DNA of 64,000 nt from a virus, in the IMG/VR virus record IMGVR_UViG_3300037296_000046, positions 1 through 64,000 of that record. One strand, 5' to 3'. The translations under genes were made by a program, and so were the position numbers. The first letter of the stretch is position 1. The number at the start of each line of letters is the position of its first letter. The notes under the pieces were generated by a model. It was not told where the DNA came from, did no database searches, and saw only the letters and a program-made list of their open reading frames with translations. This document shows, piece by piece, positions 10,112 to 40,359 of this stretch.

Positions 10112-10186
10112 GCGTAGTTGGTTACAGGTATATAACTTGTAGCCAACTTAACCGTACTCAGTGCCAACTGTATGGTTCCGCAAAGA

Positions 10187-10239
10187 AACCCAGTCAGCTA
10201 GTTACATTATGTGTAGCTAGTTGGCTGGGTTCTTTTTTT
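10187..10239 (+). terminator. Long-stem Rho-independent terminator
   Basis: 21-bp stem (with G-U pairs) AACCCAGTCAGCTAGTTACAT/GTGTAGCTAGTTGGCTGGGTT then CTTTTTTT. Confidence 0.8.
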
Positions 10240-10333
10240 ATGGGTAGCATCATCTAAATGCTATCTTTTGAAAAGATGTACTTTTTGACTAAGGATTACC
10301 TAAGTCTCAACCCTTGAAATGGAGGTTACTACA

Positions 10334-34981: not shown

Positions 34982-34996
34982 TTGATTGGAAAACAC

Positions 34997-36295
34997 ATGC
35001 CACTGAACTTAGGGCAGAAAAATGCCTCGACAGAGTGTCTCCAATTCCTACTGTCACCAGATAAAGAGTTTCGTATCGCTGGGCCAGCAGGAGTTGGTAA
35101 GACATTCATGTTGAAATACATCATGAATACATTGATCAAGCAGTACGAACAGACATGTAAACTTCTGGGCATCAAGCCTACTGAGTTTGACATTGCTCTT
35201 ACTGCTACGACCAACAAAGCTGCTGAGGTGCTTGCCACTTCTACAGGATACCCAACCCAAACGATCCATAGCTTTATGAATCTACGGGTATACGACGATT
35301 ACTCTAGCGGAGTATCGAAGTGCAATAAGACCCGTTCATGGCATGTCCATCGTGAGACTATCATCTTCATTGATGAAGCCTCTATGGTAGATGAGAACCT
35401 GTACAAGTTCCTCATGGAAGGTACTGATAAGACATGTAAAATCATCTACATCGGTGATCGTCACCAGTTGGCACCTGTCTTTGAGAAGGTGTCCAAGGTC
35501 TATGCTACTGATCATAACTTGGTCGAATTGACTGAGCCAGTACGCAATGCTGACCAGCCTGCGTTGATGAATCTGTGTGAGCAGTTCCGTGATACGGTTA
35601 AGACAGGGGTGTTTAAACCTATTGTCGAAGTTCCCGGAGTCATTGACTTCATTGATGATACCAAATTGGCTCAAATGTTGGATGTCACTCTGAAGCCTGA
35701 AGATGTGGATGCTCGTATCCTCATGTTCACCAATCAGCGTGTCCATGACTATAACGAATATCTTCGTGAAGTTCGTGGACATGGTAAGATGTTTGCCAAA
35801 GGTGAAATCTTGGTAAACAATGCCTCTGTGGAAATCAGTGACAAGATTCAATTGTCAGTAGAACAGCAATTCTTAGTGCTACAAGCTGACACTGATGTTC
35901 GTGAGATTGTAGTATGCCGTAACGATAGTTCTATCGTAATGGACATCTACAAGATGCGGATCACCCATGCTACAAATCCAAATGGTGAAGGCTTTGATGT
36001 CCGTATCCCATACGACATGGAACACTACAAAAAGCTGATGAACTATTTCAGCAACAACAAGATGTGGCCAGATTTCTACAACCTTAAAAACAACTTTCCT
36101 GATCTACGGATGAAGGATGCCTCGACTGTCTATAAGGCTCAAGGCTCCACCTATGAATTCGTGATCCTAGACCTAACTAACATCGGTCTATGTAAGGATG
36201 CTGAACAAACAGCACGGATGCTCTACGTTGGCGTTTCTCGTCCAACCACACGCATTTTCCTTTACGGCAAGCTACCCCCTAAGTACGCTGGCTGA
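34997..36295 (+). CDS. SF1 (Dda/RecD-like) DNA helicase
   Basis: GPAGVGKT, TIHSF, IDEASM, GD.HQLAPV, TVYKAQGST, LYVGVSR. Confidence 0.92.
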   Translation: MPLNLGQKNASTECLQFLLSPDKEFRIAGPAGVGKTFMLKYIMNTLIKQYEQTCKLLGIKPTEFDIALTATTNKAAEVLATSTGYPTQTIHSFMNLRVYDDYSSGVSKCNKTRSWHVHRETIIFIDEASMVDENLYKFLMEGTDKTCKIIYIGDRHQLAPVFEKVSKVYATDHNLVELTEPVRNADQPALMNLCEQFRDTVKTGVFKPIVEVPGVIDFIDDTKLAQMLDVTLKPEDVDARILMFTNQRVHDYNEYLREVRGHGKMFAKGEILVNNASVEISDKIQLSVEQQFLVLQADTDVREIVVCRNDSSIVMDIYKMRITHATNPNGEGFDVRIPYDMEHYKKLMNYFSNNKMWPDFYNLKNNFPDLRMKDASTVYKAQGSTYEFVILDLTNIGLCKDAEQTARMLYVGVSRPTTRIFLYGKLPPKYAG

Positions 36296-36303
36296 ACAAG
36301 TTT

Positions 36304-36377
36304 GGTTCTATAGCTCAATTGGATAGAGCTTCCGCCTCCTAAGCGGGTCTGTGTGGGTTCGAGTCCTACTAGAACCA
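36304..36377 (+). tRNA. tRNA-Arg(CCU)
   Basis: Acceptor GGTTCTA/TAGAACC, D-arm GCTC-AATTGGATA-GAGC, anticodon loop CT-CCT-AA, T-loop TTCGAGT; followed by CCG (no complete encoded CCA). Confidence 0.92.
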
Positions 36378-36379
36378 CC

Positions 36380-36580
36380 GGAGTACGCAGTGGACCTAAG
36401 TTGCCACTGTGTAAGGTCAGGAGCCACCCCCACGGGGCTTCCTGATTACACCCTGCTGTGACCCTTAGAAAAGGTTACAGCGTGGTGGGTAGAGCCTAGC
36501 TCAAGCCCACTGTAGGTGGCTGAGAAGCCGCAGAGAAGGATGAAAGACCTTCGCATCTAGGTGGAAACCCTAGAACCAAC
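36380..36580 (+). ncRNA. Putative structured non-coding RNA (seven tandem hairpins)
   Basis: GC-rich, ORF-free, almost fully base-paired; last three hairpins capped by TGAGAA, ATGAAAGA and TGGAAAC loops; ends ...ACCA. Confidence 0.55.
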
Positions 36581-36596
36581 TCATTAGGAGAGACAT

Positions 36597-37088
36597 ATGC
36601 GGACTTACATCGGCACTAAAATCATCAAAGCCAAACCCATGACACGGGCTGAATACAACACCTATCGTGGGTGGGATTTACCGGAGAATGAAAACGGCGA
36701 TGATGGTGGTTATCTCGTTGAGTACGAAGCAGCACCAAATGTTGAGACAAATCATGTCGATCATGCGGGCTATATTTCGTGGTCCCCAGATTCCGTATTT
36801 GAGGAATCTTATCGTGGTCCGGGAACCATGAACTTCGGCCATGCTTTAGAGATTCTAAAGTCTGGTGGACGCGTCAGCCGTCAAGGTTGGAACGGCAAGA
36901 ACATGTTTATCTTCTTGGTAAACGGTTCAACTTTCACCGTAAATCGTGAGCCACTGCTTTCGATCCTAGGTGAAGGAACAGAGGTCAATTACCACGGCCA
37001 TGTGGATATGAAGACCGCTGACGGCATGATCGTTCCATGGCTCTGCTCGCAAACTGATATGCTTGCAGAAGATTGGGGCATTGCCTGA
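36597..37088 (+). CDS. DUF2829/Tad2-family anti-defence sponge fused to an N-terminal YIGTK...SWSP domain
   Basis: C-half MNFGHAL..LK.G.RV.R.GWNGK.MFI...PW..SQTDMLAEDW (DUF2829); N-half YIGTKIIKA.PM...GYLVEY...YISWSP..VFE.SY; AGGAG RBS. Confidence 0.8.
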   Translation: MRTYIGTKIIKAKPMTRAEYNTYRGWDLPENENGDDGGYLVEYEAAPNVETNHVDHAGYISWSPDSVFEESYRGPGTMNFGHALEILKSGGRVSRQGWNGKNMFIFLVNGSTFTVNREPLLSILGEGTEVNYHGHVDMKTADGMIVPWLCSQTDMLAEDWGIA

Positions 37089-37126
37089 TCAATGGGGCAG
37101 CGTGTTTACACGTTGTCCCAACCTTT

Positions 37127-37206
37127 GTCGGTGTCACTGTAAGTGATGAGTGGGGTTTGATCACCCTTGATCAACTCAGCAGGTGGGAACCCTGCCACCG
37201 GCTCCA
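37127..37206 (+). ncRNA. Non-canonical tRNA-like RNA
   Basis: Acceptor GTCGGTG/CACCGGC, discriminator T, encoded CCA, T-arm GCAGG-TGGGAAC-CCTGC, D-like arm TCAC-TGTAA-GTGA. Confidence 0.65.
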
Positions 37207-37225
37207 TATTACAAATGAGGATGTT

Positions 37226-37723
37226 ATGAGACTTGATTATCTCAAGCTCATCCCCTCCCTGATCGCTTCGGTCATGGGACCGGAGAAAGCTCGTTTCAAA
37301 AAGCTACGCAGCAAATTAGTTGAGGATAACATGAAGTTAGGCGGTAACGTCCTTGGCTTCAGGCACCTTGGCTTGCGCTATAGCAACAACCATCCCCGCG
37401 ATACCAAAGGTGTTCACTTGCCTGCTGTGGAACCATCCTTTAAGGGTGAGGTCCAGCGATTCGAGGCTCTTGTCCTACGGGCAGAACGTGATGAGCAGCG
37501 TCTTCGCCAGTCTCTCACAGTTGTTCTACCGATGTGTGAAAGCCTACAAGACATCCGTGATGTTTTGCCAGAGGTATTCGTAACCGAAATTACACAGCTA
37601 AGCTCTCTCGTAAGAACCAGAGAGGCAGGCTACATACTGAGGGAGCATCCAGTGTTAAAGACCCAATACGATCAAGCTGTAGAGATTGCTCTATTCTACA
37701 CCGTCAATCGTCTGGTATTTTAA
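37226..37723 (+). CDS. N4 gp38-like hypothetical protein
   Basis: GAGG RBS, ATG 37226; C..LQDIRD.LPE...L.RTRE motif; coupled to DNA polymerase. Confidence 0.75.
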   Translation: MRLDYLKLIPSLIASVMGPEKARFKKLRSKLVEDNMKLGGNVLGFRHLGLRYSNNHPRDTKGVHLPAVEPSFKGEVQRFEALVLRAERDEQRLRQSLTVVLPMCESLQDIRDVLPEVFVTEITQLSSLVRTREAGYILREHPVLKTQYDQAVEIALFYTVNRLVF

Positions 37724-40359
37724 TGAAGTATCTGACCTTTGGTAAGACTGAGGCTACTCAGTACAAGATTGCGATCTTGGCATCATCCCTGAACACCGCA
37801 CAGTTCAATACCCACTACATTGAACCATACATGGAAGACTTTCGGGATGATGTAATTGCATACAGTCTTCACAAGTCAGGTAAGAAAACCTCTGTGGCAA
37901 CACAGAAGGAATACCTAGAAGACCTATTGCCTGTCCTCATGGACCTTGGTGTCAAATATCTAGTCGTCACAGATGGCGAGTACTTTAAGACACTCACAAA
38001 ATCCTCCACAATTGATGCTTCCATTGGCTACGTCATGGATTGCATCGTGGGGGATTTTAAAATCGTTTATGCTCCTAACTATGCTCAGGTCTTCTACGAT
38101 CCTGACAAAGTTAAAGTCAAAATGGAACGTGGTTTCTCTGCTCTCAAGGATCATATGGCTGGCACCTATGTCGATCCCGGAGATAGCATCATCCACTATG
38201 CTGATTATCCCAAGACACCTACTGAGATTAAAGCATGGCTGGACAAGCTCTTAGAGCTAAACCTACCCCTCACTGCTGACATCGAAGGCTTCTCCCTGAA
38301 GCACTATGATAGTGGCATTGGTTCCATTACATTCTGCTGGGGTAAGAATGAGGGTATCGCCTTCCCTATTGATATTCGTGAAGCCTATGGACCTCTGAAA
38401 CAGGGTCAAAAGCTAGAGCGATTTCATAACACAGAAGTGCGAGCACTTCTCAAGGATTTCTTTTTGAAATTCAAGAACAAACTGATCTGGCATAACATTT
38501 CCTTTGACGTATACATTCTGGTTTACCAGTTGTTTATGGATCACCTTCTGGACACCGAAGGTCTACTAGAGGGAATGGATGTACTTCTTAACAATTGGGA
38601 ATGTACTAAGCTAATCACCTACTTAGCTACGAATTCCTGTGCAGGAAACAAGCTGGGCCTCAAGTCTCAGTCACATGAATATGCAGGCAATTACGCAGTT
38701 GAAGACATCAAAGACATCACCAAGATACCCATTGATGAGTTGCTAGAATACAACTTGATCGACGGTCTATCCACATGGTTCACCTACGATAAGCACTACG
38801 ATACGATGATCGCTGACCAGCAAGAATCTATCTATGTGGACATCTTCAAGAAGTCGATCTTGGAGATTATCCAGATGCAGCTAACAGGCTTGCCTGTTGA
38901 TATGGCTCAGGTGATTAAGACATCTGACATTCTGGATGGTGAGAATAACATCGTCAAATCTAAGATGATGAATTCGATGGTCGTCCAAGGGTTCACTCCC
39001 TACCTTCGTCAGAAGTGGATGGACACCATGCACTCTAAGTGGAAGGTGAAACGGATCACATTGGCTGAGGTTCCTGTTCGTAAGGAAACCACCTTCAATC
39101 CCGGCAGTCCTGTACAGCTTCAGAAGCTCCTCTTTGATGAGGACTTTATGGGTCTACCTGTTCTTGAACTTACCGACTCCAAACAACCAGCTACAGGTGG
39201 TGATGTCTTAGAGAAGCTCAAGAACCATACGACCAACCCAGAATACCTAGCTTTTCTAGATTATCTGATTGAGTACAAGACCCTCGCAATCATCATCAGC
39301 ACCTTCATTCCAGCCCTCAAGAACGCCTCTCTGGCTCCTGATGGGTGGCACTACATGTTTGGCAGCTTCAACCTAGGAGGCACGCTCTCAGCCCGTCTGA
39401 GCAGCAGTAATCCTAACCTGCAAAACATTCCTGCCTCTGGTGCAACCAAGGCTAAGCAACGCTTGGCCAAGATGATCAAGAAGTGCATCAAAGCCCCTCC
39501 GGGCTGGCTTTTCGTGGGTTTAGATTTCTCGTCACTGGAAGACAGAATATCTGCCGTTACAACCCGTGATCCAATGAAGCTGAAGGTCTACACCGATGGC
39601 TTCGATGGTCACTGTCTTCGGGCATATGCTTACTTCAGTGATCAGATGCCTGACATCATTGGGGATAGTGTCAAATCTATCAACTCTATTTCCAAGATGT
39701 ATAAGCACCTTCGTCAGATCAGCAAGGCTCCAACTTTTGCCCTGACATACCAAGGCACCTATCACACGCTCATGGCTAACTGTGGGTTCAGTGAGGAACT
39801 GGCTAAGGCAATCGAGGCTAGTTACCACAAGCTGTACGTTGTCTCTGACGAGTGGGTGGCTGACAAGCTGAAGCAGGCAAGCAAAGACGGTTATATCACG
39901 GCAGCATTTGGTCTGCGTGTTCGTACCCCCTTGCTCAAGCAGGTGATTCTTGGCACCAAGTCCACTCCGTTCGAGGCAGCAGCCGAGGGACGGACAGCAG
40001 GTAACGCTCTGGGGCAGTCATGGGGTTTGCTCAACAACCGAGCAGCTTCAGAGTTTATGGCTAAGGTCCGTAAGAGCAAATACCGTCTGACAATACGTCC
40101 CTGTGCTCATATCCATGATGCTCAGTATTATATCATCAAGGATGATCTAGAGCATGTAGAATGGATGAATACTCATCTCGTAAAAGCAGTCCAATGGCAG
40201 GAGCATCCTGACATTGCTAACGATGATGTGAAATTGGGTGGAGAACTTTCGATCTTCTATCCAGACTGGTCAGTAGAATTGGAAATTCCCAATGGTGCAG
40301 ATCAGAATAAAATATCTGAAATGGCTGAACAGCATTACTTAGAGAAATGCGCAGCTTAA
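37723..40359 (+). CDS. Family A DNA polymerase (N4 gp39-like)
   Basis: Exo DIEG, HNISFD, YNLID; RLSSSNPNLQNIP; motif A DFSSLEDR; motif B R..SKAPTFALTYQG; motif C IHDA. Confidence 0.95.
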   Translation: MKYLTFGKTEATQYKIAILASSLNTAQFNTHYIEPYMEDFRDDVIAYSLHKSGKKTSVATQKEYLEDLLPVLMDLGVKYLVVTDGEYFKTLTKSSTIDASIGYVMDCIVGDFKIVYAPNYAQVFYDPDKVKVKMERGFSALKDHMAGTYVDPGDSIIHYADYPKTPTEIKAWLDKLLELNLPLTADIEGFSLKHYDSGIGSITFCWGKNEGIAFPIDIREAYGPLKQGQKLERFHNTEVRALLKDFFLKFKNKLIWHNISFDVYILVYQLFMDHLLDTEGLLEGMDVLLNNWECTKLITYLATNSCAGNKLGLKSQSHEYAGNYAVEDIKDITKIPIDELLEYNLIDGLSTWFTYDKHYDTMIADQQESIYVDIFKKSILEIIQMQLTGLPVDMAQVIKTSDILDGENNIVKSKMMNSMVVQGFTPYLRQKWMDTMHSKWKVKRITLAEVPVRKETTFNPGSPVQLQKLLFDEDFMGLPVLELTDSKQPATGGDVLEKLKNHTTNPEYLAFLDYLIEYKTLAIIISTFIPALKNASLAPDGWHYMFGSFNLGGTLSARLSSSNPNLQNIPASGATKAKQRLAKMIKKCIKAPPGWLFVGLDFSSLEDRISAVTTRDPMKLKVYTDGFDGHCLRAYAYFSDQMPDIIGDSVKSINSISKMYKHLRQISKAPTFALTYQGTYHTLMANCGFSEELAKAIEASYHKLYVVSDEWVADKLKQASKDGYITAAFGLRVRTPLLKQVILGTKSTPFEAAAEGRTAGNALGQSWGLLNNRAASEFMAKVRKSKYRLTIRPCAHIHDAQYYIIKDDLEHVEWMNTHLVKAVQWQEHPDIANDDVKLGGELSIFYPDWSVELEIPNGADQNKISEMAEQHYLEKCAA

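Follow-up and report, generated by a model that had tools for sequence, protein, structure and literature searches.

Architecture of the Insert

The virus record IMGVR_UViG_3300037296_000046 is a complete phage genome of 75,869 bp with direct terminal repeats; its first 64 kb (64,000 nt) were analyzed and are herein called the window. The phage, an N4-like member of the Schitoviridae, has a DNA polymerase with 58% identity to the homologues in coliphage N4 and Sinorhizobium phage ort11, and the gene for its virion RNA polymerase (vRNAP; 3,663 amino acids) lies on the strand opposite to the element considered here, a 930-nt accessory insert within the replication genes. An earlier note on this DNA had described five elements in one orientation between the helicase and the gp38-like and polymerase genes: a tRNA-Arg(CCU), a structured RNA, a gene encoding a Tad2 domain fused to a second domain (herein the Tad2-fusion gene), a hairpin, and a tRNA-like RNA. 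All five are found at the places described, on the + strand. The features of the insert and its flanking genes, with the basis of each assignment in parentheses, are as follows.

36296..37225, + strand: whole accessory insert, 930 nt, from the helicase stop to the gp38-like start
36304..36379, + strand: tRNA-Arg, anticodon CCU, canonical cloverleaf (ARAGORN, Rfam, and R1, our own generic phage-tRNA model)
36380..36578, + strand: structured RNA with hairpins H1 to H7, 199 nt, or 217 nt including the leader (fold energy)
36556..36578, + strand: H7, a 6-bp hairpin (to 36574) with loop UGGAAAC, followed by ACCA (sequence, motif scans)
36579..36596, + strand: short leader with the ribosome-binding site AGGAGAG of the Tad2-fusion gene (sequence)
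36597..37088, + strand: two-domain Tad2-fusion gene, 163 amino acids, N4 gp49 family (Pfam, phrog, structure)
37093..37120, + strand: hairpin of 12 to 14 bp without a U-tract (−19.6 kcal/mol)
37127..37206, + strand: tRNA-like RNA, 80 nt (acceptor/T-arm/NCCA scan, R1)
34982..36295, + strand: Dda-like SF1 helicase gene, N4 gp37 homologue (phrog_325 at 1.6e-107)
37226..37723, + strand: gp38-like gene, true start at 37226 (phrog_4881 at 3.6e-16)
37723..40359, + strand: family A DNA polymerase gene, N4 gp39 homologue, intact (Pfam DNA_pol_A, phrog_17)

Judged from gene order, the 930-nt block is a discrete, co-oriented insertion into a conserved replication operon, since no comparable block follows the helicase gene in N4, ort11, or an IMG/VR relative (L002). 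The gap between the helicase and gp38 genes is 9 to 10 nt in N4 and ort11, with the polymerase gene next, versus 930 nt here; in L002 a gp38-sized open reading frame (ORF) begins upstream of the helicase stop, and the polymerase gene lies ∼530 nt past that stop. The gp38-like protein shares 30 to 36% identity with ort11 and N4 gp38. The insert contains the longest noncoding stretch of the genome, and its GC content is 0.47 to 0.54 compared with 0.40 to 0.45 for the neighboring genes. No close relatives of the phage were found in the phage genome collection, IMG/VR, or the metagenome set. With the gp38-like protein as query there was no match in IMG/VR or the metagenomes, and the polymerase as an IMG/VR query matched only three loci, at 45 to 60% identity; no tRNA was found near the polymerase gene at these three loci (ORFs were read for L002 only). 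Within the phage itself, no RNA cluster adjoins the vRNAP gene and there is no second Tad2 gene.

A Two-Domain Protein with a Predicted Tad2 Fold

Residues 78 through 162 of the Tad2-fusion protein match the Tad2-like Pfam family PF11195 at 89 bits (cut-off 25; 2.8e-25); at full length the protein hits phrog_872 (1e-55). By sequence, it also matches solved structures of Tad2 and AcrIIA7, with E values from 6e-19 to 4e-13. The AlphaFold2 model has a predicted local distance difference test (pLDDT) score of 92, and Foldseek aligns it to ModTad2 at 5e-9 with a template modeling (TM) score of 0.8 by target. The C-terminal domain is accordingly modeled with a Tad2 fold, and signal binding is its candidate function. 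In sequence and fold this domain resembles the Tad2 sponges SPO1 Gp34.65, ModTad2, SptTad2, and HgmTad2 (= AcrIIA7) (10.1101/2023.05.01.538930; 10.1101/2023.11.15.567273); unlike them, the protein here adds an N-terminal domain (N-domain) of ∼76 residues. The homologue in coliphage N4, gp49, is 46% identical.

The N-domain (residues 1 through 76; 36597–36824) belongs to no Pfam family, and a Foldseek search gave no Protein Data Bank (PDB) match. Its structural matches in the ESM Atlas are stand-alone phage proteins of 78 residues, and, again by structural match in this resource, N-termini of proteins that carry Tad2, Sequestin plus Acb4, or Acb2/Tad1-hairpin domains. As a side observation, it occurs as a free-standing module, with 65% identity in a 266-residue ORF of the relative G001; loci carrying it include L007:1501-1704, L073, L077-L079, and L084-L087. 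Acb4, Tad2, and Sequestin are experimentally supported sponges that are often fused to each other, as in Acb4-Tad2 of Pasteurella phage Pm86, Tad2-Sequestin, and Sequestin-Acb4 (10.1101/2025.07.12.664507). The protein here has the same plan, Tad2 plus a second small domain, but its partner matches no named sponge family. Given these structural matches, the N-domain probably serves either as a second sponge or in assembly, and we treat it as a candidate for either role.

A tRNA and Two Folded RNAs

The tRNA-Arg(CCU) begins 8 nt after the helicase stop codon. It scores 62 bits with the Rfam tRNA family (RF00005; cut-off 29) and 74.1 bits with R1, and is the sole tRNA that ARAGORN finds in the 75.9-kb genome. 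Its 3′ end reads ACC-G, so that a complete CCA is not encoded. The Rfam mascRNA model matches only its T arm (15.8 bits; cut-off 42.5). AGG is the rarest arginine codon of the phage (3.4% of Arg codons; 1.5 per 1000); because the phage barely uses it, codon supply is a weak motive for keeping this tRNA, and we dropped it as the tRNA's role.

Two repeats touch the tRNA. An imperfect 21-nt direct repeat (AGTACGC-N9-AAGTT) flanks it at 36282–36302 and 36382–36402, with a spacing of exactly 100 nt. The 9-mer CTAGAACCA at its 3′ end (36369–36377) recurs 201 nt away at 36570–36578, the end of the structured RNA, and the region of this second copy (36571–36579) is complementary over 9 bp to the 5′ end of the tRNA (36302–36310). 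An att-like duplication of the tRNA 3′ end was considered and dropped, as the register is incompatible with a duplicated T arm. Both the direct repeat and the recurrence of CTAGAACCA may be traces of block assembly, or chance.

Immediately downstream of the tRNA, the 217 nt from 36380 to 36596 fold with −90.5 kcal/mol (z = −5.68), and none of 200 shuffled sequences is equally stable. The opposite strand is less stable (−80.4 kcal/mol, z = −2.58), which fits an RNA read from the + strand. The individual hairpins H1 to H7 contribute −6 to −17 kcal/mol, and the loops of H5 to H7 take the T-loop form U-G-R-R-A. R1 aligns H7 as a stem plus ACCA at 5.3 bits, a nonsignificant score. The structured RNA matches no Rfam family; models of tmRNA, YrlA-type Y RNA, group I intron, riboswitch, and ribozyme were unmatched, and ARAGORN likewise found no tmRNA. 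Two derivations of the stretch were tried and dropped. As a decayed or permuted tRNA array, it has only short words in common with tRNA-Arg, within the range of shuffles; as a paralogue of the tRNA-like fold, it gives an alignment score that 7 of 300 shuffles reach, which is suggestive only.

The position of the hairpin array raises the possibility that it is mainly a cis-acting leader, controlling the Tad2-fusion mRNA in its timing, translation, or stability: its ACCA end lies 18 nt upstream of the start codon and abuts the ribosome-binding site. That site is, however, weakly paired in the predicted fold, known riboswitches give no match, and the leaders of the closest homologues of the gene measure only 8 to 20 nt. 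We consider a mainly leader-like role unlikely.

The hairpin that follows the Tad2-fusion gene, given in the earlier note as 11 bp at 37094–37119, is present and proves somewhat longer, with 12 to 14 bp at 37093–37120. It starts 5 nt after the stop codon and ends 6 nt before the tRNA-like RNA. Its stem would suit an intrinsic terminator, but no terminator is called with the tail AACCUUUGU.

The tRNA-like RNA comprises a 7-bp acceptor stem, a mini D hairpin of 4 to 5 bp, an extended central arm, and a 5-bp T stem with loop UGGGAAC; its 3′ end, a discriminator U followed by an encoded CCA, lies 19 nt upstream of the gp38-like start. In a scan of the genome, 37127–37206 alone fits the pattern of a 7-bp acceptor stem, a 5-bp T stem next to it with a U..A loop, and NCCA; the pattern is absent from 60 shuffled genomes. 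The acceptor/T-arm minihelix is complete: the 7-bp stem stacks on the 5-bp stem, and U54/A58, the discriminator, and CCA are all present. The R1 alignment spans the element from end to end; within it the acceptor stem, T arm, and CCA align, and the D and anticodon arms are skipped. As a canonical tRNA, the element gives no Rfam match at E values up to 10 and is negative in ARAGORN, including its intron mode; the relaxed mitochondrial mode alone calls it, together with seven other calls in 1.1 kb. The element is not a decoding tRNA. Two complementarities with the Tad2-fusion gene, possibly due to chance, were seen: the 5′ part (37131–37144) matches codons 3 through 7 (36603–36616) at 11 of 14 bases, and the central arm (37164–37173) matches the stop region (37086–37095) at 9 of 10 bases.

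These properties bear on a rival explanation of the whole block, in which a tRNA, decayed tRNA remains, and an independently mobile Tad2-fusion gene are chance neighbors in an accessory-gene hot spot and the folded RNAs have no function. The lack of a canonical D arm, an anticodon arm, and a UUC T-loop in the tRNA-like fold speaks for it. Decay should break stems, however, and simple decay is argued against because all 26 of the 26 modeled pairs are intact; the 217-nt stretch, far more stable than its shuffles and more so on the transcribed strand, likewise counts against this explanation. Overall, we regard chance assembly as rather unlikely, though the most serious of the alternatives; further evidence on both sides is given below.

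Homologue searches favor the chance explanation in one respect, as they returned no homologue of either RNA. Blastn against 50,697 phage genomes gave only generic tRNA matches for both RNAs; blastn and nhmmer across 80 IMG/VR and 80 metagenome Tad2 loci, as well as three IMG/VR pattern scans, gave none; and a single-sequence covariance model of the tRNA-like fold (R2) found nothing in 15 N4-like records. Both RNAs are new, and one genome is their only known source.

Elsewhere in the window, a 195-nt intergenic region (10112–10306) folds with −83.4 kcal/mol (z = −9.4) and contains perfect hairpins of 14 bp and 20 bp, the latter followed by a U7 run; it resembles an early-region terminator cluster.

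A T-Loop Hairpin Shared with RNA Clusters of the N4 Group

A comparable set of parts exists in N4 itself. There gp49 (RefSeq) lies just before the vRNAP gene; it has an Acb4-family gene (PF13876) as its neighbor and follows directly on a protein-free region of 1.5 kb that holds four tRNAs and further weak tRNA-like elements (the locus is NC_008720 32112-34485, L089:24114-26486). Klebsiella phage PW7 (L090) and Escherichia phage CU10EC (L091) have the N4 layout, and PW7 also has a Sequestin gene (PF21825). The clusters of this group contain several unannotated tRNA-like elements that score 14 to 38 bits with a generic tRNA model, on the strand of the adjacent sponge genes.

One short motif is common to the two settings. 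A T-loop hairpin with loop UGGRAWC and stem NNAGG/CCUNN occurs twice in the insert and once each in the N4, PW7, and CU10EC clusters, and no other hairpin copy occurs in ∼3 Mb of other phage DNA, where chance would give ∼0.2 per Mb. A motif match in record G027 was set aside because it is not a hairpin and is probably coding. At the two outer pairs of the stem, the copies differ in both bases. That so unusual a T-loop recurs within the insert and in the clusters of the N4 group, its stem changes compensating one another, argues against chance assembly.

The phage thus resembles N4 and the Enquatrovirinae in family, in the two-domain Tad2 gene, in same-strand tRNAs with subcanonical tRNA-like elements, and in the UGGRAWC hairpin. 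It differs in location and content: the N4 group places the cluster next to the vRNAP gene, whereas here it stands at the helicase/gp38 junction, and N4 has four tRNAs versus one here. A search of this phage for Acb4 and Sequestin was negative, as it also was for the control genomes. LUZ7, another N4-like phage, has a gap at the equivalent position that yields late small RNAs, one of them apparently processed (PMC9163698). The region of LUZ7 sRNA1-3 (NC_013691 42644-43041; L179:9645-10042) lies between gp46/47-like genes and small ORFs that precede the vRNAP gene; it contains no tRNA-like match, and the three small ORFs that follow it belong to no Pfam family.

Mobility of the Tad2 Gene and Its tRNA Neighbors

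The closest Tad2-fusion homologues with known loci (55 to 72% identity) come from ∼20 IMG/VR and metagenome loci; two Logan proteins, P0002 and P0003 (76% identity), lie outside this neighborhood comparison. All of these ∼20 loci are at one spot in a split N4-type DNA polymerase gene, after residue 645, an arrangement of a clade of N4-like phages, with the sponge gene as cargo between the halves (L010, L011, L012, L014, L015, L097-L107, and L110; for example, L011:918-4186). Some also carry an HNH endonuclease. The gene can thus move alone, as the chance explanation holds. The insert itself gives no tblastx or blastn signal for DNA-polymerase fragments carried with the Tad2 gene. None of the ∼20 loci has a tRNA or related RNA beside the Tad2-fusion gene, and the parts of the insert are therefore not inherited as one unit.

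Across Tad2 loci more generally, 144 of the 160 have no tRNA in their flanks, again as expected of chance neighbors. Where a tRNA is present, the arrangement is strict: all 16 such loci have the tRNA on the strand of the gene, and in 8 of 10 distinct groups the two are no more than 600 nt apart, which counts against chance. The clearest case is Listeria phage P100 (DQ004855 126367-129690; L177), in which tRNA-Leu and tRNA-Tyr, both on its strand, enclose the Tad2-like gp169 gene within the tRNA array; the GenBank record gives these tRNAs on the strand opposite to that called by ARAGORN. The P100 and A511 group shares with the insert the order tRNA, short spacer, Tad2 gene, short spacer, and tRNA or tRNA-like element on one strand. 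It is unlike the insert in that the phage family is unrelated, both flanks are true tRNAs, the Tad2 protein has one domain, and there is no multihairpin RNA. No tRNA lies near the SPO1-type Tad2 gene. The association of tRNA and Tad2 is recurrent and tight where present, yet a minority pattern, and may in part reflect the use of tRNA regions as accessory-gene hot spots.

These comparisons also bear on the model put forward in the earlier note, in which the tRNA, the structured RNA, and the tRNA mimic work in trans against defenses that cleave tRNA or sense RNA, serving as decoys or replacements, and form one multilayer unit with the sponge. Phage tRNAs do rescue tRNA-Lys cleaved by PARIS and tRNA-Tyr cleaved by retron-Eco7. 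The weakness of codon supply as a motive for the tRNA favors the model, as does the fact that sponge genes (Tad2, Acb4, Sequestin) adjoin clusters of tRNAs and tRNA-like RNAs in the N4 group and that Tad2 adjoins tRNAs in P100. However, we know of no phage defense system that targets tRNA-Arg(CCU), and the closest homologues of the gene occur without the other parts of the insert. We judge such a decoy unit to be very unlikely. The comparison of gene order across relatives that the note had proposed gave a divided answer: a similar layout recurs in the N4 group, and at the split-polymerase loci the RNA and Tad2 parts occur apart, which goes some way toward the independence that the note had named as refuting its view.

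Transcription and Processing of the Insert

The earlier note had seen no obvious U-tract terminator in the island, and this holds: on the + strand, the noncoding parts of 36296–37225 contain neither a promoter-like nor a terminator-like site. One weak promoter-like match (9/12) lies at 36639–36668, inside the Tad2 ORF, and the counts of such matches do not exceed those in shuffles. Strong U-tract terminators are present elsewhere in the phage, and the hairpins of the insert have no U-tracts. Read-through from the helicase gene is favored because only 8 nt separate helicase and tRNA, because the noncoding parts hold no promoter or terminator site, and because U-tract terminators are found only elsewhere.

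Features expected at processed tRNA ends occur at both RNA boundaries. Positions 36304 and 37127 each have U at −1 and G at +1, as for RNase P, and the tRNA-like RNA presents a 12-bp stack of acceptor and T stems followed by UCCA. Each CCA end is followed closely by a start codon with a ribosome-binding site, at a distance of 18 nt from 36578 and 19 nt from 37206. Co-transcription of the block and cutting at its tRNA-shaped ends are plausible from this geometry.

Our best explanation, taken jointly, is that an accessory insert in the middle (replication) operon is read through and cut by host tRNA enzymes, that its protein is a Tad2 sponge, and that its RNAs are cis-acting or stable RNAs; we give this combination an even chance of being correct. 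The block would be transcribed within the helicase-gp38-polymerase transcript. RNase P would cut at 36304 and 37127, and 3′ trimming would stop at the CCA ends (36578 and 37206). The expected products are the tRNA, a stable RNA of ∼200 nt, and an 80-nt tRNA-like RNA; there would remain a Tad2 mRNA, its leader short and its 3′ end guarded by the hairpin at 37093–37120, and a gp38/polymerase mRNA with a short leader. The Tad2-fusion protein would take up Thoeris-type, and possibly CBASS-type, nucleotide signals. The RNAs would most likely serve as cis-acting punctuation for processing or stability, or be stable RNAs of the kind found in tRNA clusters.

Both kinds of RNA have precedents. The tRNA gene cluster of phage T4, with rnaC and rnaD (species 1 and 2), and the tRNA region of T5 provide stable RNAs that are transcribed together with phage tRNAs and cut by host tRNA-processing enzymes. 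Like these, the RNAs here are small folded RNAs in the company of a tRNA, a likeness of description only; here, however, they flank a protein gene in a replication operon. In mascRNA/MALAT1 and in the tufB tRNA-mRNA operon of Escherichia coli, a tRNA-shaped fold recruits RNase P or 3′ processing and so sets the ends of the neighboring RNA. The insert likewise has a tRNA-shaped fold within a longer transcript, although processing here is what we infer.

Several observations weigh against this explanation. The tRNA-like fold scores only 13.9 bits with R1; this is the best non-tRNA match in the window, with a window-wide E value of ∼0.1. Its folding energy alone is unremarkable (z = −1.8). The structures of both RNAs rest on one sequence, without support from covariation, because no homologues were detected. 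Beyond the 13-nt hairpin motif, the RNAs of the island and the N4 group show no significant sequence similarity, as local alignments do not exceed shuffles. A strong terminator in N4, 20 nt before the Acb4 gene, parts the RNA cluster from the sponge genes, a further difference from the insert. Finally, the ∼20 closest homologues of the gene have no RNA neighbors.

The processed transcript unit of the earlier note survives in part. It is supported by the discrete, co-oriented insertion, the noncoding parts free of internal signals, the geometry of the ends, and the recurrence of a similar arrangement in the N4 group and P100; inheritance as a unit is the part that fails. The insert looks like a compact, relocated version of the tRNA, tRNA-like, and sponge-gene locus that stands beside the vRNAP gene in the N4 group.

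A Possible Wider Pattern

A broader reading would have the Schitoviridae and some other phages (the P100 group) build counter-defense cassettes punctuated by tRNAs, in which sponge genes stand among tRNAs and tRNA mimics marked by UGGRAWC, with the insert as a minimal portable form. The mimics would recruit RNase P or 3′ processing and so time and stabilize the sponge mRNA; alternatively, they might titrate a tRNA-binding host factor or a defense nuclease. We regard this generalization as improbable.

Tad2 sponges and phage tRNAs are both established counter-defense tools, and the small stable RNAs of phage tRNA clusters have gone unexplained since T4. The insert packs a tRNA, folded RNAs, and a sponge gene into 930 bases with clean geometry and, being so small, would be simple to clone for tests. 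N4, a laboratory phage, itself keeps tRNA-like RNAs beside Acb4 and Tad2 genes, to which PW7 adds Sequestin. Should the RNAs have no bearing on the gene, the island would be another accessory-gene hot spot. If they control or assist sponge genes, they would provide a function for the stable RNAs and a way to insulate a new gene within an essential operon.

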